A stretch of DNA of 51,236 nucleotides, counting the filler, from Stramenopiles sp. TOSAG23-2 (taxonomy: Eukaryota), in NCBI GenBank assembly GCA_900128395.1. It is 2 parts of 2 records of this genome, joined end to end, with 100 filler letters (N's around TTAATTAATTAA, not from the genome) between each part and the next. Parts side by side here need not be neighbours in the genome. Positions count along the whole stretch, not along the records: positions 1 to 25,595 come from LT649452.1; 1 more part is not named here. One strand, written 5' to 3'. The notes under the pieces are model-generated. The model was not told the DNA's origin. It ran no database searches and saw only the letters and a list, made by a program, of their open reading frames with translations. The position numbers were made by a program, and so were the translations under genes. This document shows, one piece after another, positions 1 through 45,136 of the stretch; within the stretch, counting starts at the first letter, position 1; each line of letters opens with the position of its first letter.

Positions 1-289
1 TAAATTTACGGCCAGTAGATCTTTTTTTTATTTTTGGTTTTGATGTAAATCTGCCTGGACTTCTGCCTCTACCATAATTAAATTTACGGCCAGTAGATCT
101 TTTTTTTATTTTTGGTTTTGATGTAAATCTGCCTGGACTTCTGCCTCTACCATAATTAAATTTACGGCCAGTAGATCTTTTTTTTATTTTTGGTTTTGAT
201 GTAAATCTGCCTGGACTTCTGCCTCTACCATAATTAAATTTACGGCCAGTAGATCTTTTTTTTATTTTTGGTTTTGATGTAAATCTGCC
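1..289 (-). repeat. 78-bp perfect tandem repeat, ~3.7 copies, coding GRFTSKPKIKKRSTGRKFNYGRGRSP
   Basis: Unit starts at 1, 79, 157 and 235; period divisible by 3; open on the minus strand. Confidence 0.95.
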
Positions 290-1678
290 TCTAGATGTAG
301 ATGTTGGCTTACTCGTTGCAGGCCTTGGGCGTGGTCTTGGTCTCGGTCTAGGCCTTGGTCTTGGTCTTGGTCTCGGTCTCGGCCTTGGGCGTGGTCTTGG
401 TCTTGGACGCGGCCTTGGTCTTGGTCTTGGTCTTGGTCTTGGTCTTGGTCTCGGTCTTGGGCGCGGCCTTGGTCTCGGTCTAGGCCTTGGTCTTGGTCTT
501 GGTCTCGGTCTCGGTCTTGGGCGCGGCCTTGGTCTCGGTCTTGGGCGCGGCCTTGGTCTCGGTCTCGGCCTTGGTCTCGGCCTTGGGCGAGGTCTTGGTC
601 TCGGTCTTGACCTCCTTCGAGATGGTCTAGATCTTCTTCCTCCCCTACCACCAAACTTATCCACTGCACTTTCTGTTTCCAACAAACTCAATTGCATCCC
701 CTCTTTGCCATCATTATGACATTTAATATTAAATTTCGTTACCAACCCAGGCATAACATCGATACATTTGCATAATAAAACATTCTTATCATGACGTGAT
801 GGCACTACACTTAGTTTATTCAAATGATCTAGAAATTCTACAACATACTGACATGAAGCAGTTTTACGCATGTTTTCATTCATATGGCTACATGTATCTT
901 GAGACTTAGCCTTCACTTCATACGCAACAGTTTGAAACTCATACAAAGGTGTTTTTCCTAAATACAACCCATATTCTGTCAATGCATTCAACTTCTTTTC
1001 GTTGGTTGAAGGTCGTTCGCGAATGATAATTTTATTCCACAAACATCGTCTTTGCATATCTTTACCACCGGCACATGACAATTTGCATGCTTTTTGAGAA
1101 ATTTTAGCCCTATATTTTAATATATTCTTTCCATTATATATACGACATAAGTTCCTTCTTGGTCGTTTTCGGATTACTATTTTCTGGTTATCATGATCTG
1201 ATCCTTCCTGAGCGTCCTTATCGTCTTCCTGTTCACTACCAGATCCTTCCTGTTCACTACCAGATCCTTCCTGAGCGTCCTCATCGTCTTCATTTTCACT
1301 ACCAGATCCTTCCTGAGCGTCCTCATCGTCTTCATTTTCACTGCCAGATGCTTCCTGGGCGTCCTCATCGTCTTCCTGTTCACTGCCAGATGCTTCCTGG
1401 GCGTCCTCATCGTCTTCCTGTTCACTACCAGATCCTTCCTGATCAGTACCAGCAGCATGTATTTTTGCTTTATTCTTCGCTTGAATCATACTCATCATAT
1501 TCTTTTTATTAGCTAATGATGTTGCAAATGCTGCTTTCTTATCTTCTACATTTATAGATTGTCGATCTTTCATTTGTTGATCTATCGATGCACCATGTGT
1601 AGATATTATATTAAATATATACAATATTATTAAAATCAACAATGTTGTGACGGAAACATCTTTGATTTTTTTCTTCAT
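1..1678 (-). CDS. Secreted-type repetitive precursor (>=559 aa, truncated at the window edge): signal peptide, acidic repeats, Cys-rich domain, (RP)48, 26-aa basic repeats
   Basis: Manual translation from ATG at 1678 (MKKKIKDVSVTTLLILIILYIFNIISTHGASID...) found no stop down to position 2. It is absent from the ORF track, probably because it has no stop in the window. All variation in the RP tract is synonymous in this frame. Confidence 0.9.
   Translation of the reverse strand, partial: MKKKIKDVSVTTLLILIILYIFNIISTHGASIDQQMKDRQSINVEDKKAAFATSLANKKNMMSMIQAKNKAKIHAAGTDQEGSGSEQEDDEDAQEASGSEQEDDEDAQEASGSENEDDEDAQEGSGSENEDDEDAQEGSGSEQEGSGSEQEDDKDAQEGSDHDNQKIVIRKRPRRNLCRIYNGKNILKYRAKISQKACKLSCAGGKDMQRRCLWNKIIIRERPSTNEKKLNALTEYGLYLGKTPLYEFQTVAYEVKAKSQDTCSHMNENMRKTASCQYVVEFLDHLNKLSVVPSRHDKNVLLCKCIDVMPGLVTKFNIKCHNDGKEGMQLSLLETESAVDKFGGRGGRRSRPSRRRSRPRPRPRPRPRPRPRPRPRPRPRPRPRPRPRPRPRPRPRPRPRPRPRPRPRPRPRPRPRPRPRPRPRPRPRPRPRPRPRPRPRPRPRPRPRPRPRPATSKPTSTSRGRFTSKPKIKKRSTGRKFNYGRGRSPGRFTSKPKIKKRSTGRKFNYGRGRSPGRFTSKPKIKKRSTGRKFNYGRGRSPGRFTSKPKIKKRSTGRKF
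320..607 (-). repeat. Hexanucleotide-based coding repeat giving (Arg-Pro)48
   Basis: 288 nt read as alternating Arg (AGA/AGG/CGC/CGT) and Pro (CCA/CCG/CCT) codons without interruption. Confidence 0.95.
1200..1441 (-). repeat. ~42-bp coding repeat giving acidic QE(G/A)SGSE(Q/N)EDDEDA units
   Basis: Five to six imperfect copies, in frame with the 1678 ORF. Confidence 0.9.
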
Positions 1679-2485: not shown

Positions 2486-5400
2486 ATGAGTTCAATTACT
2501 GTGTTAGAAAGAAAAAAAAATGATATTGATCTTGCGGTAATGTCCTATTCCTATGCCTATTCATCATGTGTTGAAAATGAAAGATTAAAACATAGAAATA
2601 TAGGACGTAGTGCAACGCAACATGTTCAACAATCATTAAAAAGCTTTAAACAACAATGGGTCATGTATAAGTTGGAAAACTGTTTTTCATGTTTTTGTGA
2701 AGGCAAAAAATATGCAAATCAATTAACATTTGCGAGAGTCGACGGGGTGATAAACGCAAAAATTAATTATAATATGGACAATAACAACTATAATGATGAA
2801 AACTGGAAAACATTTTTTGCTATTCCCATACAACGCTGGTTTAAAAAAGTACACGCAGTTGAAATAAAAGTATTGAAAGACAAAAATGAAAATGAATTTA
2901 TAGCTGCAAGAAAAATACAACGTTATTGGAGGTCTATTTTTCCAAAAAATATAATTAAAAATACTTTAAACAAGGCAAAGAATTTGAAAGATTTTTGTGA
3001 TATTGCTAGTGCAATGGAATATAAAGATCAAGGCAAAACGTTATTAGCAGTTTCAAGAATAATAATCCATTCAAAATATTTCAAGGAAACCTACAATTTT
3101 CAAACGGTTCCCGATTATCTTGTAAAACTAGTTGAAAAAATTTATTCGAAAGTCCATAAATTGACAAAAGTATGGAACAATATGGCAACCAAATCTAATA
3201 ATAATAATAATAGTAGTAGTAGTATTGGTAGTGATGCTTTTTACCATTATCGTTGTAAGATTGGTTCAAGGGCACTTTATAAAATTATATCTTGGATATT
3301 GAAAATAGATCATCAAAATACATCTAAATTAAGCAATAAAGAAGATGTTAAACGAATTTATTCCATATTTAAAAAAACAATGAAAATGGGTGATATTATA
3401 AAAGCAGGAACAACAAATGAGATTAGCATTGAAAATGATAATAATAATAATAATTCAAACAAAGAAATTAATGATGGAAATTTCGTAAAAGTTAATAATC
3501 AATTAATTGATGAATCATTTGAGTTAAATAGTGAAGATAGCGATGATGATATTGCCACAGATGAAGTACTTTCGTCCTCTGACGACGATGATGATGACGA
3601 TGATGATAATGATATGCCAAAGTATAGGGTAGGAGATCGCATTGAAGCAAAAGTTAGTGGATGGAAAAAATACTATGGCGGTGAGGTGATATTTGTAAAT
3701 GAGGATGATGAAACATATGATTTAAAGTTTGACAATGGTGAACGTAAACGTGGTGTTGATGTTAAATATATCAGACAGATAGGTGAGAAAACGTCAAAGA
3801 GCGAAAAAAAGTCGAAAATCAAGCAAAAGCAAAAAAAACTCAAAGAAATTACTTGGAGTAAAAAGACAAACTTAAGACCAATTTCAAATAGCCGCAATGA
3901 TTTTACTATTGGTTTTAACAAATCAAGTAATAATTGGGAATCGGTTATTTCAGATACCAAATTGAAAATACCAAAAGGCTATAACATGAAAATAAGTTTT
4001 GATGTACCAGACCCTTGTGATGGAACCAATACGTGGGGATATTGTGTCTGTGTTGGGAAAGATAAAAAAACACACACTACAAACTTTGAAAAAAGTTTTC
4101 CAGGTGCTGTGAACGATTCTATTGGTTTTTCTTGGATATTGTTAGATGGTGGATTGTTACACGATGGTAAGAAAAAAGATATTTATCATCAAAAAAAGTC
4201 AAAACTCACCAAGGGGCAAAATGGATATATCATTATCGATCCAACTGCTACAACTCCTAGTGGCCATTTCCAATGCTATGGAAACGATGGTACAAAGTTT
4301 TTTTCTGGTGGTCAATGGTGGGATAATGGTATGTATTTAAGTATATATATATCCAAAAAATCTGCATTAAACTTGAAAGTAGAGTTGGTATCATCTGGAA
4401 AGACGAAGGGGAAAAAAATTTCTTCTAGGAAAAAAAAAAGTAAAGAAAAGAAAAAAACAAAGAAGGGAAAAAGAAGAAATAAATCTTTTGATCAGGCAAA
4501 ATTCAATGCAGTTAAAAAGAAGCATGGGAATAATGATGATGCACTAGTAAAGTGTTGTAAAGATGGAACATTTGATGAAGCAAAACTTTTAATTGATGGA
4601 GGTATGGATGTTAATCGAAAAGCTCCTACTATATATGACAATACTGCGTTAACAAGAGCTGCTGCTAGTGGTAAATTGGAAATATGCAAATATTTACTAA
4701 ATGAATGCGGTGCAGATGTAAACTTAGGTGGCTATAAAAATCGAAGTGCACTTATCATGTGTTGCTGGGAAGGTCATGAAAATATAGTAAAATTTTTTTT
4801 AGAACAACCTGATATTGAAGTTACGCTAACAAGACCAGATGAAACTGGTGTTACTCCATTAAGTAAGGCAAAAACAACAAAAATAAGGAATCTAGTGCAA
4901 TTCAGGATAGATAACAAACCTAAGAAGAAAAAGAGACTTACTAAAAGGAAATCTTCTACGAAAAAACGAAGTGTAACGAATAATGGAAGCAGTAGAAAAG
5001 GAAATCAAATTTTAGATATTAAAGAGCTTGATTTAAATACGGATATAAATACAGAAGATGGTGCAGAGAAGTTGTTAGATGCAATTTCTAGAACATTGAT
5101 TCTTCGTGGTGCACAAAATTTAACATCATTTGGCATGAAACTAACGGATTTGGTTGATATACTTAGCGATTCAAAAACAGGTCGTAAAACAATTGCTAAT
5201 AATACTGTAAACGCTCGTATTGATACCTTTTCTACACTTACCAACAAAACATTGCTTTGTGCAGAATTAAGCGACGATGGGAAAAAAGTAATATTTGTAG
5301 CATTAGCGAATAAAACCGATGCAGTAAAATTTGAATATCGTGGGAAAACATCAACTGCAGGTTCATGGACCAAATTATCTGCTACATATAATGCCACTGA

Positions 5401-8400
5401 AAAACTTTGGAAATCTAGTACTTGGTCAAAAGGCAATACACAGTATCATCAACGTTTGTCGATTAATGGGGAGGTTGTAGATACTACTGATGAAGCAGAA
5501 GCATTATCTCGGAAACCAATGTCATATGCGGAACAAATAGAGAGCCAAAAGGTACGAAATAAAATCATAAGCCTTTATCGATGTTACGATCCTATTTCGT
5601 TAGAGTTAGTAGAACAAGATTTAGATGAACTTGATGGTGTTAAGGAAGAACAAGAATTCTTAGAAACGCTTCAAAAGGAATTTAGTACTATAGAAAAACC
5701 AATTGAAAATGTAATTGATTTAAAATTAAAAAATGAATGGGATTTAGAAGAATATGGCGACATTGAGGATTTTTTACGAGATTACAGGGAATATTTTACT
5801 TGTGATGGTAAAGAAATTAATGATGAAATGACCATGTCATTATGGCCAGGATCTAAATGCTGGAGCTGCGGGAAAACAGGAACAATATGTAAACAGCTTC
5901 ATCCAAAAAGTGCAAATAAATCACGAAACGATGCATATGCAAAGAATGGATGGTTTGCCGTATGTGATGCTCACAAAACCTATAATCCTGATGCGTCCAA
6001 AAATTATGGTCCATTACCAGACACGGGTACTGAGTTTGATGGTGATTCTATCATTGCTTTAAAACCTGGCATTGCAGATGAAGTATATAAGGAATATGTT
6101 GGGTATTTATTGTCAAAGAAATTTCCAATGAAAACAAAACCAATTGAAAAAAAGAAAAGTTTAGCATTATTGAAAGCAGAACGTGAACAGCGCCAAAAGT
6201 CTATTGTAGCAGCAAAAACATCTTTGAAAATTCTTGAGATTATGGCTGAAAATTTAAAGAAATTAAAAAATGGTGTTGATCAAACAGATAATTCAAGTAA
6301 TGCTATGAAAATTTTCTTTCGGGACTTATTTGGTTACATTGTTTGTACTGTGATACCGACAATTGGCAACGAAGATAAAACACTAATAAAGTCAGCAGAA
6401 TGGGCTATTATTCCATTGTTAAATTCGTTATCAAAAACAAATGAATTTGATATGAAAAAAATTGAACCGTTTATGATTTTATATTTTCATCCATACAAAA
6501 CAATACATGATAAAATTAAATCAAAGAGTATTTTGTCAAAACTGAATTGTATACAAAAATTTTTTTCCTTGCATTCTCCTAAAGTTTTTGCTGCAATAGA
6601 AGCTAGAAGAAGATTGAAAATATTTATTAAACGTCTTCGTGTTATGAAAAAGAGAGGTACTATAGGTAAAATTGATTTCTACGAAATCTGGAATGCTATT
6701 GTGGAGTACAAAGATGAGGAAGAGAATAAAAAAAATAAAAGTACAGGGAACATTGATGATACCAACCTCAAGTTAGCAATCGAGGGCTTAATTCAAACAA
6801 CGCTACGTCGTAGAGCGCCAGAAATACGCAAAGAAGCCGCGATGCGTTTAAAAGAAGATGAATCAAAACGAGCAAGTATGCATTCAAAATCTGCATATAC
6901 TCAAAGAATCATAAATATGATGGGATTTCGCAGTAGGGAGGCTGATAAAATTGGAGATTTATGCGCAATGCAAGAGAAACTAGTCGGTTTTGAAGAAGTT
7001 AAAAGTTTCTGCAATGCTATTGTTGAAGATGCTCTTGGTAGAAATACGTTAAATGAGAATCGACCTTTACGACATGTATTGATCAGTGGAAATCCTGGAA
7101 CTGGTAAAAGAACTGCTGCGTATTTATTTGCAAAATGGTTTTACTATACACAAGCAAAGAAAAAAAGGAGCTTGTCGAAAAAAGATGTCAAATTTCCAGC
7201 TAAAGGTTCCAAATGTAAATTGGCAAAAGATTATAAAAAAGATAAAGAAGCGGAAAAGGGGCCTTTGAAACCAGGAGAAATTGCAGTAATAGAAACTGGT
7301 TCAACGCACAGCACAGCAGTTACTATTAAAGGATGGTCGTATAAGGTCAACATATTAGTTCCAGTGGTAAACAAAGCTGGGGAATGTATCAATATTTATA
7401 ATATTGATGATTTAGAAGAGCAAATTGAAACGAATGATGAGAAATTTGTTACATTTTATTGGTCAATAATTAACCCAGACGAAGTAAAAGAAAAAAAGAC
7501 TTTGATGAAAGTCAGTGCACTTCTGACAATGGCATTAGCAAAGCAAATTCGTGTCATAATAGGTGCTCATGATGTTGTTATACAACGATTGGCACCATTA
7601 CCATGTTATCGAGCTTTTGAAGCAAGTGTCATGAAATTGCCTATTTTATCTTCCTCAAATTTAGCAAAGATATCATTGATGCGTTTAGAGGAAAAAGGAT
7701 ATAGCCTTGCTGCAGATGATGATCGTCGTAACAGGCTTTCAACAATGAAAAGGATTGTAAGAAGCAAATATGATAGCGCATCTATTCAAGCTAGAAATGC
7801 ATATTTAGCAGATGATTGTATTGAATTGGCTATTTCTAGAAAGAATAGGCGTATTTTGGAGAATATAGAGGAGCGCAACGATTACGATAAAGCTCCATTG
7901 GTACTTACGGTAACAGATTTTGATGTGAAAACGACGACTGCACAAGAGAGAGATCGACTAAGAAAGGATATCGATGAAAAAATTGAAAGCATGTTAGGTT
8001 GGGGTGTTGAGGAGGAACATGGAACGCCTAGATGGTGGTTTGCAAGAATGAGAGAACTAATTGAACAGGCAGAAAACGATGAACATAATCTTGAATTAGA
8101 AGACATTTTAGAGAATACTTCCATTTCCAAATCTCAAGATGATCAAAAAGATGACTTAGCGCCACCAAAAATTAAGCTTAAAAGAAGCATTTCATACGAT
8201 GATGAAGCTGGTATTCAAACTTCGTCCCTTCGTCCTTGGGAATTCAATACTATTATTGAAGGCAATGAAGGAGTAGGGAAAAGTTTATTTGCACAAGTAG
8301 CAACAGAATTTCTATTTGCATATAGTATTTTGCCAACCAACAAGATGATGAAACAGATAGGCCAACCATCAATGGCATTTGATACTTTGAAAAAAACGGA

Positions 8401-10941
8401 TGGTGCATTATTAATTGCCCAAGCGGAGAAAATAATGCCAAATTTACAACAAGCAGCAAATAATTTAGATGCTCCATTAGATGCTGGTGCAAATATTGCT
8501 GAACATGCTACAAAACCAAACACATTCATAGCATTATCCTGCCCAGTTGGTAGTGCCATTGGTACTTTAAATTCACATGTTGATTTGAAATCTAAGGTAC
8601 CGTTTAGTGTGAAAATGCCTGATCCAGAAATTTATACATTAGTATTGATTGCAACTAAATATTGTGCTGAGAAACGTGGTGTTTATTTTGAAAAAGGATT
8701 AGATGTAAAGTTGAAGAAATATTTAGAAGATACATACAGCTCAAAACCAGAGGGTGGTGTCCGATTTATTCAACAATTAGTTGATCAAGCTCTCCTTCGA
8801 AGAAGTGAACGAAGAGCAGCCCATCAAACTGGTCAAAAAGCAAGTATATGTTTGATACCATCTGATTTTGAAATTGGAAAAGAATTAGGTGACCCGGAGG
8901 AAATCAAGAAAATTATGGATGAAGTAAATGGCTTGATTGGCATGTCAAATGCAAAAGAATGGCTAGAAAAAATTAAAAAAAACATTGAATTTGTAAATAT
9001 TACTGGAGATCGCAGAACCATTAAACGATGCTATAATTTAGTCTTGACTGGTGCTCCAGGAACAGGTAAAACGACGTTTGCAAGAATGGTTCATAAATTT
9101 TTAAAAGCACATGGTGTTCTAACTGGGGAATTTATAGAAAAAAATGCATTGGAGCTGAAAGGTGAATACGTTGGAAGTACGACGCCACTTGTGAAAGCAT
9201 GTTTTAAGGATGCGAAAAATGGCACATTGTTTTTGGATGAAGCTTACTCATTAGCTAGTGAAAATGGTGGATCTGGTGATATATTCTCCAAAGAAGCTGT
9301 TCGAACATTGTTAACGGAAACTGAAAACAATCGAACTGGTACAGTCGTCATCATGGCTGGGTATGAAGATAAAATGAAACGATTTATGAGAGAAGATCCA
9401 GGATTACCAAGGCGATTTCCAGAATATTTGCATTTGGAAAACTATAGCACTACTGAAATTGCAGATATTGCAGAATATGTTGCACAAACTCGGTATGGTC
9501 GCCAATTTGAAGATGGTTTGAAAGAAAAACTTGCAAAACATGTTGGGATAACATATCGTCGACAAATTGAAGAACAAAATGGTGGACTTGCAGTGAACCT
9601 TGTACAAGATGCAAATAAAGAGCAACAAAATAGATTATTAAATTCGATAACTGAAGTCCAAGGTGTTGATCGGAAACAGCAATTGTTAGAAGCTGCTACT
9701 ATTTTAACTGCTGAAGATTTTGGTATCGCTGAATTGGGTAAAGGAACACTTGGAGCTGGTGAAATGTTAAAAGCGGAAGCAGAAGAAAAAGTTGGAAACT
9801 TAGTGTCGATGGTAGAAGTTAAGAAGTTTTTCGCCAAAATGAAGAACACTGCTAAATTTGTAGAAAAGACCGGAAATTCTGCTCCATTATTTAGTTGTAT
9901 GAATCTGGTCTTAATGGGCAATGCTGGTACTGGTAAATCTACTACAGCTCGAATTATTGGTGAATATTTGTATGCATATGGCATTTTACAAAGTGGTACT
10001 TTTCATGAAGTAAATGCGTTACATTTAAAGGGACAATATATGGGACAAACAGCACATCGAGTTTCCGAAATTGTGAAAGATGCTTTGGGTGGATGCTTAT
10101 TCATCGATGAAGCGTATAGCTTAGTATCGGATGGAGGAGATTCATATGGACGTGAGGTTGTTCGCACTTTATTAACTGAAGTTGAAAATCATCGATCTGA
10201 ATTATTGGTAATCTTAGCGGGATATGAAGGTCCAATGGAAAACTTGCTTGATGCAGATCCAGGATTGAGAAGACGCTTTAGTACTCGTTTATTATTGCCA
10301 AATTATAGCGGAAAAGAGTTGGCTAAAATTGCAAAATTAGAGGCAAAACGAAAAGGATTATTATTTGAAGAAGGTTTAGAAGAAAATCTTGGAAAGTACA
10401 TTGAATTTGCTCATTTTGATGATATGGAAGATCAAAATGGAGGCCTTGCCGTGAATTTAGTTGAAAGGGCATTAGAGCGTTTGGCAGATCGATTAATTAA
10501 TCAAGACTTGCCTGATGAAGAAATAAGAAAATTAGGTAGGACATTTACAATTTAGTTGAAAGGGCATTAGAGCGTTTGGCAGATCGATTAATTAATCAAG
10601 ACTTGCCTGATGAAGAAATAAGAAAATTAGGTAGGACATTTACAGCAGCAGATTTTGATATTGATTTTACGAAAAATATATCAACCACCATGAAGAAAAA
10701 ACGCAGCAGCAGTAGAAAACATGGTTGCAAACACAATGCATGTGATGTAAGTGATAACAATCATAACCACAACTATCCTCGGAATCAGCCAGTAGCACCA
10801 AACAGTAATTTAACCGTTTTTGCCCCACCAATTCTTACAGTGAGGACTCGTCCACCTAGAGTTAAAAAAACTCCAGGTGGCGGTGGATCCAATTCACGAG
10901 TAAAAGAAGCACCAACTCAAGAACAAGTTGAAGAAGAATAT

Positions 10942-12111: not shown

Positions 12112-12426
12112 TTAACATGGGAATAGGACTACAGTATAAAAATGGAAGGAAGCCAAAGCATAAATAAAAAATAAAAAAAAAAATCTTCTTCTTCTAAAAA
12201 TACATTTTTTAATCCTCTTTTTGCACGGATATATACATGTATATATATATTGATGTACACATCATGAACGTAAGAAATGTGTACATACATGTTTTTCTGT
12301 TCATAACTGTATTGCTGACATTCATTCGTTGCCCCGCAGTTGTATATGGAAAGAATACCACATGGGATATACATATATAAAACGATAAGTGCAAAACAAA
12401 AAAAACAAAACAAAAAAACAGGCAAC

Positions 12427-13416
12427 ATGGAGGAGAATATATTTGATGATATAATAATAACTAAGAAACATACAAAAACAAAAAACAATAATAAAAAGAA
12501 TGTATCAACGAAGAAAAAGAAATATGTAGTAACAACAAAAAATGAATTTGATGATATATTTATTTCAGATAAACGGAAGAAAATAATAGAATTAGAACGA
12601 AAAATACAAGAGGAAGAAAATGAACAAAGATTGAAAGAAATGGAAAGAAAAAGACCAAAAACACCTTTGTTATTACAACGAAAAACAATACCGTGGATAG
12701 AAATCAATAAATCCTTCCAATTTTTACGATTAGAGCGTTGGAGAACACCATCATCATTTCCCAATGGTGTAAAATTATTAAAGAAATGGTTAGTGAACAA
12801 TAATGAATTATTATCAAGAAGTTTTTATCAATATAAATTAAAAAAACTTGCATTTGAAAATTTTTGTATTCATGCCTTTCAAACAAATGTACAGAATCTT
12901 GAATTAGCAAGAATATTAGCAAAACAACATAAATTAAAAAGACATCAAAAAGAAATAGAATATGAAGTAAGATGTGGCAATTCATTTAATTTAACTATGG
13001 AATCAACCAGGAAACGTATGAGATTGCTTTTAAAATGTTGGTATAATTTTGTATCTGATCAAAAAATTGACAATACTGACAATATAAAATGGAATAGATA
13101 TATTAGATATAAACGTAGTAAAATGTTATCCAAAGAAGAAGAAATTAAATTAATAGAAAGTCGAATATCATCTGACAATTATGATGTAGATAATAGTTTT
13201 CAAACATCAATGTCTGTTACACATCCATATAAAGTACGAGAGGCACTTGTCGGAATTGGCATGGAGCCATGGCAAGAACATGCAAAAAATGCTAAGCATT
13301 TACATAAAATGGAGGAAAGAATTTACAAAACAAAATATGCTGGTTATCAATCTAGTATTTTTGATACATTTAATCAGACGGCATTAGGAAGAGATGATAC
13401 CTATGAGAGGGACTGA
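12427..13416 (+). CDS. Hypothetical basic, coiled-coil-rich protein
   Basis: Long ORF; first ATG at 12427 (MEENIFDD) chosen over the TTG start in the track; no confident domain. Confidence 0.7.
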   Translation: MEENIFDDIIITKKHTKTKNNNKKNVSTKKKKYVVTTKNEFDDIFISDKRKKIIELERKIQEEENEQRLKEMERKRPKTPLLLQRKTIPWIEINKSFQFLRLERWRTPSSFPNGVKLLKKWLVNNNELLSRSFYQYKLKKLAFENFCIHAFQTNVQNLELARILAKQHKLKRHQKEIEYEVRCGNSFNLTMESTRKRMRLLLKCWYNFVSDQKIDNTDNIKWNRYIRYKRSKMLSKEEEIKLIESRISSDNYDVDNSFQTSMSVTHPYKVREALVGIGMEPWQEHAKNAKHLHKMEERIYKTKYAGYQSSIFDTFNQTALGRDDTYERD

Positions 13417-19409: not shown

Positions 19410-20717
19410 ATGGAAATGAAGAAAAAATATACTGTGCAATCAACAGAGAAAGGTGATGGGGAAGAGGATGAAAGAATAGGTTTAATGGAAGATGGGAAGA
19501 AGGAAACATCCTTGGCAGATTTGCCACCACCAAAAGAACAGTGGCTTCAAAGACATAGAGCTTTCTTAAATTTCAATGTAGTATGGTTTGTGAAGTTAGT
19601 ATATACTTTGACTGAAAATCCTGAGAGCAAATTATTTCATTTCTTTATGAATAACATTATTACGCTTTTTGTCGAAGGAAGTGTTCCTCTACTTGGGACG
19701 TTAATATGGACTCTTGGGATACCAAAAGCAGCTGTATATAGTATGTCCATATTTTCTTTTGTATTAGTAGGATATGGCATCTATATTAAAACAATCGAAT
19801 TCAAAAGAAGAAAATATATGAAAATGTATCACTACTATGATATTCACCAACCAACGATTTGCGAACCCTTAGATAGATCATCTAATTTTTGCAGGGTCAT
19901 GGAAGAAATGGAGAATACAAAATCTACTATCTTGATTATGCCATTTCTTAGTAGTGGGATATGTCTATGGTCTATTTGGTATTTAATTGCTTATTCTGTA
20001 TTAAATGGGCAAATTGCTGCTGCTTCCAACCTGGATTTTTATTTAGCATGTTGCGGAACTGTTGCAGTCGGAATAGCTCACGTTTGGATTACCCTATTAT
20101 TTGGCTATCACTTTGCAGTCGGTAAAGCGACAAAAAAGGTTAACAAAAAGTATACTAACAATAAACGGGCTAGTTTTACTAAATATCTTGTTACTGAATT
20201 ATGCAATATTTTGGGAAAAGATCCATCTACGGAAACGTTGGAAGAATTAAAAAATCATAGCAAAATAATGAAATTGTACATTGATTCTTTAAATTATTAT
20301 GAAGGTCATAAAATTTTGCATTCTTTTTTTACATTGATAATAAACGTCATTGGTTCCTTTGTTGTTGCACTTTGGCCCAACTCAGAAGGGGCTATCGGTA
20401 TTTCTCAAGTCCTTGTTGGTGTTCTAGGTGCTACATTTTTTTTTTACTTTTTATCTAAAAGTCCAATTGCTAAACCTGCAATGGGATTTGATAAAATTTA
20501 TAGCCGATTCACAGATGCAAAATGGTTTAACGCGGCATTAAAACATTTTCATGGAAATAGTGTAAATTTATTACTATATTTAGAACAACATCGATATGGT
20601 TTTAGAGTATTTGGTATACGAATTGATATGAAACTTTTCCGCCTTGTTATAAGTCTAGTCGCATCTGGTTTTGCAACTGCAACTTTTTATTCGATAAGAG
20701 GTTTGGCAGCAGGTTGA
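19410..20717 (+). CDS. Multi-pass membrane protein, candidate gustatory-receptor-like/DUF3537-type 7TM ion channel
   Basis: About seven hydrophobic segments with a long loop after the fourth; C-terminal LYLEQHRYGFRVFGIRIDMKLFRLVISLV resembles the hairpin-plus-TM7 motif of GRL/DUF3537 proteins. Confidence 0.65.
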   Translation: MEMKKKYTVQSTEKGDGEEDERIGLMEDGKKETSLADLPPPKEQWLQRHRAFLNFNVVWFVKLVYTLTENPESKLFHFFMNNIITLFVEGSVPLLGTLIWTLGIPKAAVYSMSIFSFVLVGYGIYIKTIEFKRRKYMKMYHYYDIHQPTICEPLDRSSNFCRVMEEMENTKSTILIMPFLSSGICLWSIWYLIAYSVLNGQIAAASNLDFYLACCGTVAVGIAHVWITLLFGYHFAVGKATKKVNKKYTNNKRASFTKYLVTELCNILGKDPSTETLEELKNHSKIMKLYIDSLNYYEGHKILHSFFTLIINVIGSFVVALWPNSEGAIGISQVLVGVLGATFFFYFLSKSPIAKPAMGFDKIYSRFTDAKWFNAALKHFHGNSVNLLLYLEQHRYGFRVFGIRIDMKLFRLVISLVASGFATATFYSIRGLAAG

Positions 20718-22689: not shown

Positions 22690-23934
22690 ATGACATTAAG
22701 CAAAGAGGATAATGATGTAGAAAAAAATAAAGAAAGTTTAACAATAGCAAGGATGACTTTTTTACATCATTTACAATTCTTTATTACAACTAATGGCAGA
22801 ATGGAAATATTATTACCATTTTTCAAAAATGATACGGCGCTTTATTCCATTGCTGTGAATAATGCCATTCGAACTTCATATGTTTTATCTATTATTTTAA
22901 ATCCATTGATGTTAGAATTATCGAAAATTTTTGGACGACTAAATATTATCAATTTTGGCATATATTATCGTACTGCAACAAAATTATTAGTTTCTCTATT
23001 TCCAACTGGAAATATTGAATTGTTAACCGCGTATGCAAATGCACCTGGTGAACAAACTATCAATTCCTTCAGTGTCTATTTATCTGATATTTACAAAGGC
23101 GATGCTACTAAACTTGCAGCTGCACAAGCGCAAAAAAATGCCTATACATTTGCTGGGTTAATTATTGGGCCATTGCTTGGTGGTTTTTTAGTTCGTCAAA
23201 ATGTTCGTTTACCATATTTATTTGCTGGTATGTGTGGCTTGGGTGAAATGTATTTAAGTAACCAATTAAAAGAATATGTACCAAAAGAAGATAGAATGAC
23301 TTTTGGTGACATTGATTATTCGAAAATCAATCCATTTGGTTTTATCAAATTATTTTTATCTGGTGGAAAAATGGCAGCATTGTCTTTCATGCATATTTGT
23401 AGTCATATTAGCGGACCACGTGGATATGGAATCATGGAAGATTTATTACGTACAGAATGGTATGGAAATACATTTTCAATTATGGATAGATCATATATTA
23501 AATCCTTCTCTTCAGTTTTATTAGTAGCTGGATATGCAAATGGTGGACGTTTAGTTAAAGCATTTGGTGGTGCAAGTAAATTGTTTTTCACTTCGTCGTT
23601 AATATTAATATTGCAACGTTTATACCAATGGTTGTTTTCAAAAACATTATTTATGGATTATTTATTTCAAATTATTAATTTATCAAAACCATTATCTGAT
23701 GTTGGAAGCAATGTCATGCTACGTCAAGAAGCAAAAAGACAAAATGTAAAACCAGCAGAATTAGAAGTCATGTTAGGTAACATGGAGGAAATAACATCTG
23801 TATTTTGTTATCCTGCGTGGGCGATGGTATATGCATATTGTTTACGTAGCAATGATGTACGTAGATGGTATGGTGCATTGGCATTTATAACTAGTGTACA
23901 ATATGTATTAGGCACGTATGCAAATTCATCATGA
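22690..23934 (+). CDS. MFS transporter (TetA/DHA1-like)
   Basis: About 12 hydrophobic segments; LSKIFGR motif-A-like loop; YLSD; GLIIGPLLGGFL motif C; INPF linker. Confidence 0.85.
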   Translation: MTLSKEDNDVEKNKESLTIARMTFLHHLQFFITTNGRMEILLPFFKNDTALYSIAVNNAIRTSYVLSIILNPLMLELSKIFGRLNIINFGIYYRTATKLLVSLFPTGNIELLTAYANAPGEQTINSFSVYLSDIYKGDATKLAAAQAQKNAYTFAGLIIGPLLGGFLVRQNVRLPYLFAGMCGLGEMYLSNQLKEYVPKEDRMTFGDIDYSKINPFGFIKLFLSGGKMAALSFMHICSHISGPRGYGIMEDLLRTEWYGNTFSIMDRSYIKSFSSVLLVAGYANGGRLVKAFGGASKLFFTSSLILILQRLYQWLFSKTLFMDYLFQIINLSKPLSDVGSNVMLRQEAKRQNVKPAELEVMLGNMEEITSVFCYPAWAMVYAYCLRSNDVRRWYGALAFITSVQYVLGTYANSS

Positions 23935-30217: not shown

Positions 30218-32654
30218 ATGCCATTTGCTGCATTTTATCACGTTGCCGAAGCGAAAAAAAATACTTTGTCACCAACAAAAAAAAGAAAACAACCATTATT
30301 CATACAAACGAATGGTAATAATAATAATAATAATGAAGAAAATTCATCGATATATATTGAAAAACGTATGCGGGACAGAAAAGCTGCTATGACCGAAGGG
30401 GAAATAACAATTTCAGCCTTTTTAAAAACATTTTTTTTATATGAACTTCCCCCACCATTTATAGGTGGATTCTTATGTAAATTAATAGATGGTGGAAATG
30501 CAGCAGCTGGACGTTTACTTACTCCCCCATCCAATACTCCAGTTGGGTGGTTTGCCTATTTATTTGCCAACTTTGTTGGTGGGAGTGCTATTTGGGCATG
30601 TATATTAGCGTTTATGTTAAAAACGGACGAGGAGACAGAATGGTCTATTGTCGAGCCTCTACAAATGATAGTATATTATGTTTTGTGGAAATTCACACTA
30701 TCTGCAAAACATGCATTGAGCAATAAATTAGATCACCGCGGACTCTATGGCATGAATTCAGGTAGATATATTAAAGCAAGACGTTTAGAACGTAAGTCAA
30801 TTTGATTCCCCAATACCTAGAAAAAAAAATATACCCTTCCTAACACATAACTCACTCATATACGCTACGCTCTACATTATAGGTATGCAATTTGCCTGCT
30901 GGGTAATGGACAACGGAAGCAACCAGCCAGGTGCTGTATTGGAAGAATTATATACAGCAAGTTTACGAAACGATTGTGATTTAAGTAAACTTCATTTTGA
31001 TGTAGGTAGTGAAACAATAGCACGTAATATTACAAAACATGTTGTGAGGTGGAAATTAAAAGCTGCAACGTCATTAGTATTTCAAGGAAAAGAAAAAGAT
31101 ATCCCAACGTGGCATCCACAACATCCGAACCATATTAATATGAAAGTGTTGAAGAATTATCGTGATCAAAAATTACAAGAAATACAAGAAAAACAACAAG
31201 AGCAAAGCATCAACATCATATCATCATCATTACCTACTATTGATAATGTGGAGACAAATGATAATGCATCATCGGTAAAGAGAGAAAATAACAATATTGT
31301 TGTTGAAAAAACAATTGAAATAAAAAAAGATGAAGAAGAAAAAGAGAATAGGATAAAAAATAATACAAATCCTTACCTTGTTAAGAATAATAAAGAAGAA
31401 GAAGGTGGTAAAACAATGGATGATGGTGAAAATAAGTCAATATCGTCCATTTCTTCTATTACTGATGAAATATTATTACCAACTCTATCTGTATCAAAAT
31501 ATGCTGAAGATGATAATTTTTGCTTATTTCGTGAATATTTTAAAAATACAAATGATCCAAATTGTGAATATGTTGAAAATTTATTACAACAAGGTAAAGT
31601 ACCTGCATCGTATGTTTGTTTTTTAATTGGTGTAGAAAATTGGAGATCTGATATGAATTTAATGGGAAAGGCCAATGGATGTATGGTTATATTAGTATTC
31701 TTAATGGCATTTATGCCGGCAATTTGTCGTGCTATATATACAGATGAACACCTTGCCTTTGGTAAATCTCAAAATGCGCAATATGTATTTGGTTTTGGAT
31801 TTGTAGGCTCCTTATTTCCTATATTTTTACTTTTTGGGTATTTAATCAATTGTTCGTTAGAAATGAATTTTCGTTTTAAAGCATCTAAATTTATGAAAAA
31901 TATTTTATTGCCAGAAGGAGCTTATGTGATTGGAGCTACTTTTGATTTTGAGCAGAAAAAAAAGAACAAAGAAACCAAGAAGAAGCAAAAGAATGGGATA
32001 CGAATACGTGTAAGTTTAAGGCAATCTTGTAATATTGTTGCATGGGCTGCAGTTAGAGAACTTTGCCATGGTGCTGCATTTTGTCCTTTTATGCACGCGA
32101 AAACACAAGCATATGTTGCAAGTTCATTTGCTGCTGCTATTTTAGTTACATCAGTTGCAAGTTTCGGTGCAGCTTTGGTTGGTGACTCTGGTGGTGGAAT
32201 TACAGTCTCATTACCAGCCGTCATCAATTCATTCGTATTCAGTGTTGGATTAGGAATATATGTTTTGCTTGCATATCGTGTAAATTTTTCTACAAGGTAT
32301 CAAAGGCAAGAAATAGCAAAAGCACGTTTAGCAGTACTTGCTGAAATTAATGATTTAGAGAAACGATTAGGAGATGCAATGTTGTCATTGGGAAACCATA
32401 ACAATAATAATAATGGGAATACATCATCTCCGGAAATCATAGAATTGAATCGACAAATCAATTCAATGCATCATTGTTCCATGTTATTACAAGTGACTGA
32501 TAAACAAACGACTGTTAGTGACCATGCAAATCCAGTCAAAGCAATGGGGTTAGTAGCTGATCCTGCCGTCTTATCTATTATGCTATCGATTTTAGCAGCA
32601 AGTGTATGGCTTGAAATACAAAAAATCAGCCGTGCAGTGACAACTACTACTTGA
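30218..32654 (+). CDS. Two-exon 781-aa multi-pass membrane protein, PHTF-like 7TM ion-channel candidate
   Basis: Exons 30218-30791 and 30883-32654 join in frame (GAA C|GT ATG); seven hydrophobic segments; NIVAWAAVRE and NPVKAMGLVADP motifs resemble the PHTF C-terminal region. Confidence 0.75.
30792..30882 (+). other. Spliceosomal intron, 91 nt, phase 1
   Basis: GTAAGT donor, CCTAAC branch-like motif near 30839, TAG acceptor; removal fuses two ORFs in frame. Confidence 0.88.
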
Positions 32655-37301: not shown

Positions 37302-40300
37302 ATGACGGAACATATCGTATTAGGGGAACGTTTGGAAATATTATCTACAGCAAATGAAGGTAGAGCATGGTCAACTATTAAAGAAAAACGTGGGATATTT
37401 GCTGGGGACCAACATCATTTGGATACAAAAGATTATCATGATTTAATTTTAAGCGATTTAATATGCTTTAAAGGTAGCCAAGGCGAGCAAACCGATGGAA
37501 GTGATGATTATGATGACGTAGTGCGATTTAGTAAAGATTATACGATACGTGCATTAACAACAAGTAAAGCAGGTGGACGTTTTTTAACTACAAATGGTAG
37601 CAATGCCGTATATAGTATATCCAATGCCGATGTTACTCTTGAACGTGGTTTTAATAAAACATGTTTATTTAAAATTAGAGCAGTGAATGAATCCAGCAGA
37701 GGTATTTCAACGCAATCGATGTTTGCAGAGGAAGTATACCCAAATGTTAAAGTAGTTTTTGAAAGTACTTCGAGTCCAGGCAAATTTATATGTATTAATT
37801 CTGGAAAAACACAAATTAGTATGGAAGGTATTTCAGAACGATGTGTATTTACTATTAGAAGAGCAAATTTAAAAAAATATTTAAAAGATTCTGATGAAAC
37901 TGCTGGTAAAGTAAGGGATGGGATATGCTTTGAATGTCAAAAAAAAATTGGAAGTAATTGGGTGGCACGTAGTAAAACGGAACATTATGTCGATTCATCC
38001 GGTAAAACACCATTAGGTACAATGGATACGTTAGATGGATTAGGTACATGGCGTGTGGAACAACGAGATGGTTGTGATTTACAAGGATGGGATTATGGCG
38101 CTGGAAGATGGGAACATTTCTTGGATAAGAAAAGGAGACCATTTCAATACACTGGGAAAGAAACAACACGTTGTAGAAAATGGGTTCATACAAATAGTAG
38201 ATACTATTCAGATTCTACTGGCGTTGGTGGCGAAAACGATGATGGTAAAGGCAATGGCAGAAGATCAACATTTGCAACAGGTGCAGGTGAATTAGGCAGA
38301 TTATCTTTTATACCTGATGTACATGAAGCTATGAAACAAGCTGCAGTGAATACTATTTTAGAAGAAGATATCTTAAATGATAGTGATTTAAATGATGGTA
38401 GTATAATGAATGAAGAAGGCGGGGATAATAGTGTACCAGGTACTCCAACAAGAAGTAGTCGAAAAGGAAAATCTGATGGGACTTCTCCACAACGTGGTTC
38501 TACTACAATGACACCGAAAAAATCTTTTTCTGGAGATTCACCATTTGGCTTTGATGAAAAAGAATTACTTATGCGTGATAATTCCGATAAAGCTTTATGG
38601 TCAATGAGTGAAACAATTGAAACATCCGATTCATGGTCCGGGGAAGTATGGATACGTAGTAAATGGATTACAAATGATGATGATACGAATATACAAGATG
38701 GTGCAGTTATGAATAAAATATGTGCTAAAAGCAACACGCCAATAACAAGTGATGATAGTAATAATAATATGGAGGAAGATAATAACGATAATGGGGATAG
38801 CAGTGATAACAATAATGATGATGAAAAAAAAGAAGATTCAAATAATAATAATAACAATAATAACAACAACAATCAAAATGTAGCTGATGCAAAAGTAAAA
38901 GTAACATTCACCATACTTGGTAAAGAGAAACAAGCGAAAATTATCTTAAACAATAGTAATGGTGATAGTGATGATGAGCAACAAAAAGAAATTATTCTAG
39001 ATTTAAATCATTTAACTTTGGTAAAAGTAATCAAAGATGAAAAAATGGCACATGATTCTCTAGCTTTAGCTGAAAAAAGCGAATGGATTTCGCGATCAGG
39101 AAGGTTGGAAGCGCAAGTAGCAGCGCTAAAAGAGAAAAGAAAAGGCCTAACAAAATTAGAACAACAACCGGTGACAAAGAAAATAAATCAACTATTGATG
39201 AGACGTTTAGCATATAAAGATCAAGCATTAGGTAGACCAGAAGCAGAAGGATGGCTGAAATTGCAATTTGCAGTTGATGATGGTAAAAATATATGTGAAT
39301 GGGTTATATCACCAATTGAACCTGTAAGTTCCTTTGTATATGGTGTGCAAGAGGGCAATGGTTATATTCAAGGTAAACGTGACAATTATAGAAATCAATT
39401 TGAAATATGCAGGCAAGTCTTGGTTGATAATTTATCAAGTGATATTAGTAAAGAAATGGATGCAGAATTTGTTCAATCCATTGCAAAATTATGTACAGAT
39501 TTAGCAGGCATGACAGCATATCAAGCTAAAAATTGTGCTAGAGATGCTACGATGCAAGCAAAGCAAGCATCAGCAGATGCTTTGGAACGTGAGAAAAAAT
39601 TAGCAGCATACCAAAAAGAACAAATGGAATTGCTAGAAGCAACGGATGATAAAATATTTGATGTAATTAATAATAATAAGACGACGCCGTTTGTTAATGC
39701 ATGTGATGAATGGTTGGTGGATATTGATAATACAGAAAAAATATCGTTAGATGCTGCAAAAGAAGGTTTGGAGATTTTAGAAGGACAGACGGGGAAATTA
39801 GAACATGTATTAGATACAATGAAAAAATCTGCTGAAATGCAAGCGTTGTTAACATTGCAATATGCAGTTCCATTAATTCCTGGGAATTACAAAGATTGGC
39901 CATGGAAAGGTTCAAGAGAATGGCGAGATAAATTGGAAAGAGGTGAAGCATCTGGTTTAGACAAAATGATTGATGGGTTGGAGAAAAAAGCGAAGAAAGA
40001 AGCTGGTATACCTGTCATTTCTAACCCGTTAGAAATTTCATCTGGAAAGGATGATAGTGAAAATAAAGATACTAGTGGAGCATCATCATCAACAGTAAAT
40101 GTGAAAAAAGAAGAACAAGCAAAAGACGCGACAAAAACAGATGATGACAATTACAAAGAAGCGCATGAAGCTGAAATTGCAGAGGAGACAACTACTTTAT
40201 TGCATGGATTTGCAAGGCAACCTGAAGAATGGGAAAATCATAAATCCATTTGCGTTTGCATTTGTTGGTTATTGTGTATAAATATTATTTTATTTGCAAT

Positions 40301-40328
40301 ATATAATATTGTGCCGTCGCCAGCATAA
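37302..40328 (+). CDS. Tail-anchored 1008-aa protein with a DysF (dysferlin/Pex30-type)-like domain and coiled coils
   Basis: WRVEQRDGCDLQGWDYG...TRCRKWV fits the DysF consensus; beta-rich N-terminal region (fascin/beta-trefoil-like, tentative); single C-terminal Cys-rich TM. Confidence 0.75.
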   Translation: MTEHIVLGERLEILSTANEGRAWSTIKEKRGIFAGDQHHLDTKDYHDLILSDLICFKGSQGEQTDGSDDYDDVVRFSKDYTIRALTTSKAGGRFLTTNGSNAVYSISNADVTLERGFNKTCLFKIRAVNESSRGISTQSMFAEEVYPNVKVVFESTSSPGKFICINSGKTQISMEGISERCVFTIRRANLKKYLKDSDETAGKVRDGICFECQKKIGSNWVARSKTEHYVDSSGKTPLGTMDTLDGLGTWRVEQRDGCDLQGWDYGAGRWEHFLDKKRRPFQYTGKETTRCRKWVHTNSRYYSDSTGVGGENDDGKGNGRRSTFATGAGELGRLSFIPDVHEAMKQAAVNTILEEDILNDSDLNDGSIMNEEGGDNSVPGTPTRSSRKGKSDGTSPQRGSTTMTPKKSFSGDSPFGFDEKELLMRDNSDKALWSMSETIETSDSWSGEVWIRSKWITNDDDTNIQDGAVMNKICAKSNTPITSDDSNNNMEEDNNDNGDSSDNNNDDEKKEDSNNNNNNNNNNNQNVADAKVKVTFTILGKEKQAKIILNNSNGDSDDEQQKEIILDLNHLTLVKVIKDEKMAHDSLALAEKSEWISRSGRLEAQVAALKEKRKGLTKLEQQPVTKKINQLLMRRLAYKDQALGRPEAEGWLKLQFAVDDGKNICEWVISPIEPVSSFVYGVQEGNGYIQGKRDNYRNQFEICRQVLVDNLSSDISKEMDAEFVQSIAKLCTDLAGMTAYQAKNCARDATMQAKQASADALEREKKLAAYQKEQMELLEATDDKIFDVINNNKTTPFVNACDEWLVDIDNTEKISLDAAKEGLEILEGQTGKLEHVLDTMKKSAEMQALLTLQYAVPLIPGNYKDWPWKGSREWRDKLERGEASGLDKMIDGLEKKAKKEAGIPVISNPLEISSGKDDSENKDTSGASSSTVNVKKEEQAKDATKTDDDNYKEAHEAEIAEETTTLLHGFARQPEEWENHKSICVCICWLLCINIILFAIYNIVPSPA

Positions 40329-44200: not shown

Positions 44201-45136
44201 AACAATACACATATAACTATTTTGACAAATGCTGTACCTAATCATCCATACCATGTTGATCGTACCAAACCAAATCCAAATAACGTTTGCGAGGATAAAC
44301 GGCGTTTAACAATCCCAAGAAATCCACAAGTAAATGATCAATATACGAAACCAATAGAAACGGAACTTGGTCCAATTGGGATTTTAAAAACCGGTGCATT
44401 TTTATACAATCATTTAGCACATGGAAATGGCACAATTGCAAATCATGCCGATACAGAGAAAGAATCGTTTGATAGTTGCCATGGACATGCAGATCCTAAT
44501 TGCCATTACCATTATCACGAAATATCAAAATCACATGCGTGTGCATATGATTGTGTTTGGGATGAATGTGAACACATCGGTTACATGAGGGATGGGTTTA
44601 AAATCTATTCACATTGTCGTAAAGGTGCTGGCTTTTTAAAAAGTTGTTATCGATTAATTGATGGTGAAAAAGGTACAGATATGGCACATTATGAATATAG
44701 ACCAAATGTTGATTGTGATTTAGATGAGGCTAATGGTTTTGATTTTACAAATAGAGGTTATACTGATCATTTAAATAACGTCATAACTGGTTATGCATAT
44801 ATTGCATCTGAAACGTTTCCATATGTGATGCCAAAATATGCTGGTACGCCAATGCCAATGGACAAATATGATGGTGCAATAGATAAAAATTATAATTATA
44901 AATGTCCAGTTGGAAGTGGCACTGCTATTCCTTTGGCTTCACCAAGTAGTAGTGGTTCCAGTAGCAGCAGTAGTTCCAGTAGCAGTAGTAGTAGTGGCAG
45001 CAGCAGTAGTAGTAGTAGTTCTAGCAGCACAAGTAATACAGCATCGACATCATCACAAACAACAACAGATGATGCACCAACTGTTCAATATATCCAACCA
45101 AATCAAAACCAAGGATATTCATATGGTTATCGTTAA
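41222..45136 (+). CDS. Secreted YHYH-domain protein (two YHYH domains) with cupredoxin-like repeats and a Ser-rich tail
   Basis: LGYAIDGFPIYGP...LDACNG...YAYH and DSCHGH...HYHYH...GYMRDGFKIY...LDEANG; two HPIAILN...YYCxxHGYMGG repeats; hydrophobic N-terminal segment (alternative start 41324). Confidence 0.88.
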   Translation: MMENNRDNNNNNKYSFASSLSFSYRRRIIYNHINMFVVIVLYFFTSNVIQSTNALQCPPPSWLPSSEAGCPCKCNGILPGACVLPCASSFSLCLPSWKSSVCRKQVTVTVSNLPQTSTYEGGMRYIFGHTPYQPLETYQDEQRKYQNYDTYTGGVVQFDLQRKTEVETYPGGVVEFDQYDHTNAWHPLQIIDEDGTVIQTSTGTSQRPATLVFEATQSQAGKTFYFKDALHGPSLASGLSLKVIAPSVENLLSIPTDVTTRVHQISTGVPLVANKTQITSMLGEETNTTICIPGIIPNRTENNYCMSSAVVVTTVIEEKETIFQSTACGLDGQFQQHKLAIPHNPDRHATAGLVKDGSPIGMLVDGAFLFSSTSNNNNNLIYQQQIRTNTNNCSINIDQHGRQFYNEIPLCLLKRLGGTVPPENTWSRSVNITANEIHEWVRVWPSKGDPSPLLGYAIDGFPIYGPYTEDGELLSWGGSFPSTDHPWYDVKSKLDACNGRTRKDGTYAYHLTPSPPYTIGCLREKPHGTSTSINLDIPCTNIITPKTNVNINGSAIISNNNTGTNNNNTTPDTKQPEVFVQPPHKIPSKEALEVAIESAPTDIKPLLDNKENVSSTFCSNTIHADSLCLCYKVDTNRYCAGFCSTSYSGYIGTQSDGYDGTVEVTGWTCFFSRKAYVAPTKLEYSCLDQKSEVNIIQSDDSNKYFTFNNLKTYSSTMKYTIGLGITTFTNIPMQHPIAILNAGVENQISYIGNDGSSSVQTVNGHEYKFYYGDVNITVNGNFNEISYYCANHGYMGGENNLKYSDACMKYECLNEASSVSIQNQNGNKFAFNNHVDFLSSRRYRVGLGTITLVNVPAYHPIAILNEGKTNLIQYSGIDFGAQKIVKEHLYKFYYGNVTITINGDFGVVDYYCYQHGYMGGEQGLEFSSGCPTYGNVNNNSNNNKNAQSSSGTTTAAVEQPKEQAPGGNNKLSPSSSCSGICGDFLESKYQEFSNNTHITILTNAVPNHPYHVDRTKPNPNNVCEDKRRLTIPRNPQVNDQYTKPIETELGPIGILKTGAFLYNHLAHGNGTIANHADTEKESFDSCHGHADPNCHYHYHEISKSHACAYDCVWDECEHIGYMRDGFKIYSHCRKGAGFLKSCYRLIDGEKGTDMAHYEYRPNVDCDLDEANGFDFTNRGYTDHLNNVITGYAYIASETFPYVMPKYAGTPMPMDKYDGAIDKNYNYKCPVGSGTAIPLASPSSSGSSSSSSSSSSSSSGSSSSSSSSSSTSNTASTSSQTTTDDAPTVQYIQPNQNQGYSYGYR

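Follow-up and report, generated by a model that had tools for sequence, protein, structure and literature searches.

Why should a microbial eukaryote encode a long, perfectly alternating chain of arginine and proline, and is such a chain kept by selection on the protein or left over from an unstable repeat? The question is raised by the genome of Stramenopiles sp. TOSAG23-2 (GenBank assembly GCA_900128395.1), in a stretch of 51,236 nucleotides, filler included, which joins two parts from two records and is here called the window. At its beginning lies an open reading frame (ORF), P0001, with 48 Arg-Pro (RP) units:

2..1678, minus strand: ORF P0001 of at least 559 amino acids, with an ATG at 1678 and the frame open to the window edge
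320..607, minus strand: (Arg-Pro)48 tract, from translation; residues 358-453, 96 codons, net charge +48, 47 overlapping PRP motifs

The tract is real and, judging from its codons, constrained at the protein level, because all of its variation is synonymous, including that relative to L001, a syntenic contig of another assembly. The probability that 559 codons are stop-free by chance is ~7e-21 at the base composition of the window, and still ~1e-12 when only the ~330 non-repeated codons are counted. The C-terminus is missing, because there is no stop before the window edge (base 2) and the 78-nt repeats that end the frame run off the window. Translation of positions 2-1678 gives the 48 RP units at 320-607 without a break, as the initial annotation had reported.

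Four Arg codons (AGA 31, AGG 10, CGC 6, CGT 1) and three Pro codons (CCA 28, CCG 16, CCT 4) are used in the tract, the same numbers of codons as in that annotation, and the seven hexamer types counted bear out its statement that the tract is not a pure microsatellite. Hexamer positions 2, 4 and 5 are identical across 48/48 units and positions 3 and 6 are free to vary; position 1 is C solely in combination with a pyrimidine at position 3 (CGY, 7/7). The Ser codons AGY do not occur in the tract, CGY (Arg) is present, and 44/44 nucleotide departures from the consensus AGACCA are synonymous. The other five frames read DRDQDL.., TETKT.. (2 stops), RPWAWSW.., GLGRGL.. and ALGVVL.. (2 stops), and since they vary or carry stops, the earlier claim that the changes are synonymous in the RP frame only is correct.

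For the consensus AGACCA, 5/18 single-nucleotide changes are synonymous, and as a deliberately low floor the chance that six independent events are all synonymous is (5/18)^6 = 4.6e-4. The substitutions in the tract are not wholly independent, since duplication has copied blocks of units: Tandem Repeats Finder (TRF) reports periods of 54 and 60 within the tract, which correspond to higher-order blocks, and block duplication is visible in the hexamer string. The true number of independent changes is nevertheless clearly greater than six. When random substitutions were simulated, (RP)48 survived in 0.054% of 50,000 trials with six substitutions and in 0/50,000 with ten. Chance is thus excluded as the source of the all-synonymous variation. 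The G+C content is 63.5% in the tract vs. 32% in the window, and AGA and CCA are the commonest Arg and Pro codons both in the tract and in the other long ORFs of the window (AGA 33% of 434 Arg codons, CCA 67% of 353 Pro codons). Outside the RP locus the window contains neither a further dipeptide run of at least six units nor a paralog of the RP gene.

A locus search gave 90 pattern matches, one of which was a relative, the 29-kb contig L001. It is syntenic with the window: 4.7 kb of flank align at 95.1% identity, and the Cys-containing domain that precedes the tract at 98.1%. The first 78 residues match those of the window gene save for one change, and the signal-peptide-like N-terminus (residues 1-29) is identical. 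The tract of L001 starts with SRRRS followed by RPRPRPRPRPRPRPRPR, and the contig stops within the tract after eight complete units (AGACCA, AGACCT, CGCCCA, AGACCG, CGTCCA, AGACCG, AGACCA, AGGCCA). Three of these are anchor units shared with the window (a-f-d), and the next five differ at 6 nucleotides, 6/6 of them synonymous. Divergence is therefore ~20% of nucleotides and 0 residues over the compared tract units, vs. 2% of nucleotides in the adjoining domain. This comparison of sequences is direct between-genome evidence of constraint on the peptide, and it counters an assembly artefact, because L001, from a separate assembly, enters the tract at the same place. Together with the synonymous-only variation inside the window, it upholds the initial view that the tract is coding and is kept Arg-Pro by selection on the protein.

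Outside the tract the two genes are less alike. At L001 4665-4987, unique sequence with an extra copy of module A (see below) replaces the acidic array found at 1190-1447 of the window; this segment encodes 108 aa with K+R 17 and D+E 17. At L001 5559-5657 there are 33 extra residues (FNNVNAPRFLEK...SRSRSS), between two RRS motifs ahead of the tract, that are not found in window 608-649. The edges of the 33-residue segment coincide with a repeated RRS-coding sequence, and it looks like an indel between short direct repeats.

The rest of the RP protein consists of the following parts:

1592..1678, minus strand: signal-peptide-like N-terminus, residues 1-29, by inspection by eye (MKKKIKD, ~19 hydrophobic residues, THG/AS)
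1190..1447, minus strand: acidic repeat array of GSGSEQEDDEDAQE-like units, residues 78-163, net charge -39
629..1186, minus strand: orphan Cys-containing domain, residues 165-350, comprising module A and a helical module B, with 9 Cys in residues 164-343
1001..1165, minus strand: module A, with 4 invariant Cys, beta-beta-alpha-beta-beta, and the motif C-x19/20-C-x3-C-x4-D-x2-R-x-C
608..649, minus strand: basic Gly/Arg linker GGRGGRRSRPSRRRS, residues 344-357, with RR and RRR sites directly N-terminal to the tract
1..290, minus strand: tandem 78-nt repeats (TRF), 3.7 copies at 100% identity, encoding 26-aa basic units GRFTSKPKIKKRSTGRKFNYGRGRSP

The label "secreted-type" given to the protein at the outset is in keeping with this layout, in which a signal-peptide-like N-terminus, judged by eye, and a Cys-containing domain were found. 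Net charge changes sharply along the chain, from -39 (residues 78-163) to +17 (164-343), +7 (344-357), +48 (358-453) and +37 (469-559). The acidic array has TRF periods of 42 and 84 at 1246-1442. The 26-aa units comprise three complete and further partial copies, and the array continues past the window edge. Sites of the types RR, RRR, KKR and RK lie around the tract and are repeated in every 26-aa unit; the RR and RRR sites may serve as cleavage sites. The perfect identity of the 78-nt repeats points to an expansion in the very recent past, to concerted evolution or to repeat collapse in the assembly.

A Pfam scan of P0001 (E up to 10) returned just two sub-threshold composition matches, among them Trypan_PARP (PF05887), which at 10.1 bits (cut-off 100, E 0.79) is composition-driven and below its gathering score. 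The sequence matches in the PDB are likewise all to low-complexity regions, namely circumsporozoite repeats, PR20, TonB and Bac7: PR20 in ribosome entries (7top, E 7e-6) and Bac7 (5hau, E 1) match by composition only, TonB matches at composition level with E 0.008-0.11, and the C-terminal repeats have a composition-level match alone (E 0.05).

In order to place the Cys-containing domain, an exhaustive HMMER search was run against 1,835,955,588 representatives, of which 7 scored E <= 0.001; a cluster look-up added three further family members, longer or shorter, for a total of 10 database relatives. The members are hypothetical proteins of environmental assemblies and EukProt. In 7 aligned sequences the invariant columns of module A are C7, A26, C27, C31, D36, R39 and C41, and the module is present once in the window protein and twice each in L001 and P0005. 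AlphaFold models have a predicted local distance difference test score (pLDDT) of 62 for the whole domain and of 84.5 for module A alone (predicted template modelling score 0.62). Foldseek gave 0 matches at E <= 0.001 for both domain models, that of the whole domain having a pLDDT of just 62, and VIA-align gave no convincing fold match either: its top score was a Z of 6.7, to a generic helical hairpin, and module A reached 4.7. The best hit of a PDB profile search of the domain had E 6.8; Pfam scans of 8 family members (E up to 1) returned no domain match and no cathelicidin family; the ESM Atlas held no usable match for the Cys domain or P0010; a word-indexed protein search with the domain produced 251 candidates, 0 of them at E <= 0.01; and 109 pattern matches in viral contigs included 0 relatives of the family. 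On these comparisons, the proteins form a small orphan family. Module A was also considered as a GYF domain and rejected (Foldseek E 0.35-2.7, probability <=0.38; GYF not among the top VIA-align rows).

Hydrophobic N-termini similar to that of the window protein occur in P0005, P0007 and P0010 and, with the N-terminus of L001 and the invariant Cys, would fit an extracytosolic protein. The most instructive relatives for the tract are P0008 and P0010 (29-30% identity), which are without RP and instead have basic Gly/Arg/Ser/Pro-rich repeat tails, e.g. NRKGGRPPA three times. A GG-x-RRS junction precedes the tail in both and is also found in L001. Because these two proteins end in other basic tails, a basic tail is the family trait and RP the version of it in the window's lineage. 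The initial annotation had asked whether homologs keep an RP tract or let it drift, and the answer is divided: the close relative L001 keeps RP with synonymous differences only, and the distant P0008 and P0010 do not have it. At the protein level, P0004 (95% identical) departs after YLGK; this fragment is a third variant, with the acidic array arranged differently.

What such a tract does is a harder question. Our preferred, and still tentative, reading is that the tract forms part of a polyanion-binding half of the protein, which after export may adhere to anionic material and so tether or concentrate the folded Cys domain. On this reading, the tract is a translated piece of a modular protein that is restricted to one lineage, changes fast and enters the secretory pathway. 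Alternating Pro would keep the chain extended and polyproline-II-like, ~30 nm long at full extension, so that 48 guanidinium groups would be spaced along a stiff polycation with expected protease resistance. Together with the 26-aa basic repeats, which add at least +37, it would make up the polyanion-binding half, and once exported this half would bind electrostatically to the cell's own surface or matrix, to particles or to prey envelopes. The signal peptide would keep the polycation from the ribosomes and nucleolus of the producer, the RR, RRR and KKR sites near the tract could permit kexin-type release of the polycation, and in the window strain the acidic array could mask charge during transit. 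An antimicrobial or toxic role is possible; such an activity is proposed by analogy.

Several points weigh against this reading. The ~19-residue hydrophobic stretch could be a membrane anchor instead of a signal peptide, and the missing C-terminus may leave room for an anchor or another domain there. A hydrophobic N-terminus is present in just 3/10 database relatives; 5/10 begin inside the domain and 2/10 (P0006, P0009) begin without one. The charge-masking idea is weakened because the acidic array is absent from L001, where the replacing segment is balanced in charge (K+R 17, D+E 17, as given above). At the expected start of the tract, the protein sequence of P0002 (96% identical; 1796-nt contig) has SRPDAKRFRRH instead. 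Between the window and L001, dN/dS is ~0.5 over 268 codons outside the repeats (4 synonymous and 8 non-synonymous changes), a ratio which, from 12 changes, is uninformative and does not point strongly to constraint beyond the tract. The polyanions named above are candidates, and expression, secretion and processing of the RP protein are predicted from sequence.

The tract can be set beside several known systems. In human C9orf72 disease, poly-PR poisons ribosomes, nucleoli and nuclear transport, and PR20-PR50 are the usual models. The antisense poly-PR of C9orf72 is the identical polymer, of comparable length, and by analogy the RP tract is expected to share its affinity for polyanions and ribosomes. 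The two differ in origin: the RP tract is part of an ATG-started ORF, behind a signal peptide, has 7 hexamer types and is selectively maintained, whereas the poly-PR of C9orf72 is a pathological product of repeat-associated non-AUG translation from a pure hexanucleotide repeat. The X-Pro rods of exported or surface proteins are another likeness. These include (EP)n(KP)n of TonB, the (SP)n hydroxyproline-rich glycoproteins of algae and procyclin, whose conformation is rod-like; as in the RP protein, a long alternating X-Pro segment in a signal-peptide protein is probably an extended, protease-resistant spacer. With Arg as X, however, the RP tract is a polycation rather than an acidic or a glycosylated, neutral rod. 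Published passages on Trypanosoma brucei describe Glu-Pro repeats in its EP procyclins, and no homology links procyclin to the RP protein, as shown by the low Trypan_PARP score. A further parallel is offered by basic C-terminal tails for matrix retention and by polycationic proteins of biominerals or adhesives, for example heparin-binding tails and silaffins: these proteins are secreted and bind polyanions through a repetitive basic tail, in some cases paired with acidic regions. Unlike the RP tract, such tails contain Lys/Ser or mixed basic residues and are much shorter, or irregular in sequence, and no sequence relation to them was found. In the human proteome, a passage of PMC10275993 counts 40/20,386 proteins with at least 10 (X-R/K) repeats, X being mostly D, E or S.

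One alternative to the polyanion-binding reading, and the main idea of the initial annotation, is that the protein is a cytotoxic or antimicrobial precursor, from which dibasic cleavage would free poly-RP, and maybe the 26-aa units; these would then pass into bacteria or other cells and inhibit their ribosomes or nucleic-acid machinery, in the manner of Pro/Arg-rich antimicrobial peptides and of C9orf72 poly-PR. It shares the electrostatics of the preferred reading and adds cleavage and cell entry, and we regard it as unlikely. The layout is suggestive, in that the tract lies C-terminal to a signal peptide and a Cys pro-region with dibasic sites nearby, as in the precursors of proline-rich antimicrobial peptides (PrAMPs) and reminiscent of cathelicidins; RR, RRR and KKR sites lie on either side of the tract and again in every 26-aa unit, and the PR20 and Bac7 matches in the PDB, composition-driven as they are, point the same way. 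PrAMPs such as Bac7, PR-39, apidaecin and oncocin are, like the tract, strongly cationic and ~50% Pro, with repeated PRP. The definition in passages of PMC7736402 asks for at least 25% Pro and a net charge of at least +1, with PRP motifs common but not required, and the tract has 50% Pro (48/96), a charge of +48 and 47 PRP motifs. It differs in being a strict dipeptide polymer of 96 aa within a protein of at least 559 aa, whereas the same passages give 18-60 aa, irregular sequence and charges of 0 to +11 for known PrAMPs, and 6-79 residues with charges up to +20 for a PrAMP-like set; they also indicate that known PrAMPs use specific motifs beyond RP, e.g. YLPRP, for binding to ribosomes or DnaK. 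Cathelicidin precursors have a recognisable cathelin-like prodomain, and the Pfam scans of P0001 and 8 family members found neither this nor another known antimicrobial prodomain. Size, regularity and the missing prodomain do not fit, the producer is a microbial eukaryote, and the putative toxic activity is proposed by analogy, from composition and layout. The Gly/Arg/Ser-rich tails of the distant homologs, too, would suit generic charge better than a ligand of the ribosome tunnel.

It is doubtful, though conceivable, that the tract is a tolerated expansion, in which slippage or unequal exchange lengthened a short basic linker of the type RSRPSRRRSRP within a disordered tail, selection purges only frame-breaking or strongly disruptive variants, and no function of its own attaches to the exact (RP)48. 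The gene is indeed a mosaic of unstable arrays (78-nt, 42/84-nt and 54/60-nt blocks), the acidic array and the 33-residue segment are present in one and absent from the other of the window and L001, and the distant relatives are without RP. Such an expansion predicts some conservative K, S, G, Q, L, A or T variants, yet there are 0 among the 44 changes, AGY is avoided while CGY is used, and L001 combines its ~20% nucleotide difference in the compared units with 0 residue changes. The tract should also be costly rather than neutral, because long RP runs stall ribosomes from ~20 repeats in human cells, according to passages of PMC9652226 (also PMC9830226). Far less probable still is a non-protein explanation, such as an untranslated or intronic microsatellite, a pseudogene, or an artefact of assembly or amplification. 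The coding status is read from the DNA, the window begins in a repeat and the L001 contig ends in the tract, where assemblers struggle, and gene predictions elsewhere are fragmentary (P0002, P0004). Against this, two independent assemblies agree at the junction into the tract, the frame is held on both sides of it with synonymous variation only, and the plus-strand ORFs that overlap it are just 42 and 47 aa long. Introns also appear rare, because the window genes are long uninterrupted ORFs, e.g. one of 2689 aa.

These neighbouring genes are eukaryotic and, with their long unbroken frames, make the initial annotation's word "protist" a fair guess. They include a dynamin with a PH domain, a SNAP-like protein, a protein kinase and a DEAD_2 helicase. 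Family matches were found for 6/10 ORFs of a first set, including a B3 match that is weak and falls short of its cut-off, and for 3/9 of a second set (a 2689-aa ankyrin and AAA protein, a DHHC palmitoyltransferase and an ER-retention receptor). Three of the ORFs deserve separate mention:

2486-10555, plus strand: 2689-aa ORF with ankyrin repeats at ~residues 680-770, at least two AAA ATPase modules and AAA_lid_6 at the C-terminus
12346-13416, plus strand: 356-aa ORF with a weak B3 DNA-binding match (E 8e-4, 19.7 bits vs. a gathering score of 30.1)
41222-45136, plus strand: 1304-aa ORF with a C-terminal YHYH domain (E 1e-26) and first ~1000 residues without a Pfam match

The 2689-aa ORF has long low-complexity Asn- and Lys-rich stretches and is oriented divergently to the RP gene. 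The intergenic sequence just 5' of the RP gene has an (AT)14.5 microsatellite at 1782-1810, which is shorter in L001. Among the relatives of the dynamin, P0012 is 100% identical, the next are at 62% and 59%, and named proteins reach at most ~40% over the full length. In the Pfam scans 4/10 and 6/9 ORFs were without a family, including those at 19410-20717, 22690-23934, 30885-32654 and 37302-40328 and six shorter ones, in keeping with a eukaryotic lineage that has been little sampled. Neither the Rfam scan nor the tRNA scan of the window gave a match.

Arg-Pro repeats in the main texts of the literature, to which our survey was confined (supplements and databases lying outside its scope), are those of C9orf72 work and of short antimicrobial peptides (marsupial cathelicidins, oyster peptides); a string of eight RP units was found there in only one C9orf72 study (preprint and published version). 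In a word-indexed search with the tract, 1/8000 scored candidates passed: P0132, a membrane protein whose tail is rich in Pro, Arg, Gly and Thr but unrelated; because of the composition correction of HMMER, this search is uninformative on how prevalent RP tracts are. The RP protein would thus seem to extend, within an orphan family, the X-Pro repeat rods and the Pro/Arg-rich cationic peptides, and a claim that it is unprecedented would be unsupported.

A bolder version of the toxic role, which we consider improbable, is that poly-PR has become a deliberate exported weapon or tool: at least 48 units would be translated despite stalling, exported in a self-shielding manner, released at dibasic sites and used to shut down translation in prey, competitors or hosts. 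Self-shielding would come from co-translational export and, in some strains, also from an acidic pro-region, and the polycation, by analogy, would be cell-penetrating. If this were true, adaptations for the safe translation and handling of poly-PR would be expected and discoverable.

Poly-PR has been studied almost solely as a pathological product. An encoded and selectively kept (RP)48 implies that a cell can make and tolerate it, and offers a natural system for the study of long Arg-Pro translation, of the containment of its toxicity and of extracellular uses of a rigid polycation. The comparisons made here also define what appears to be a small orphan family of exported-type Cys-domain proteins with basic repeat tails.

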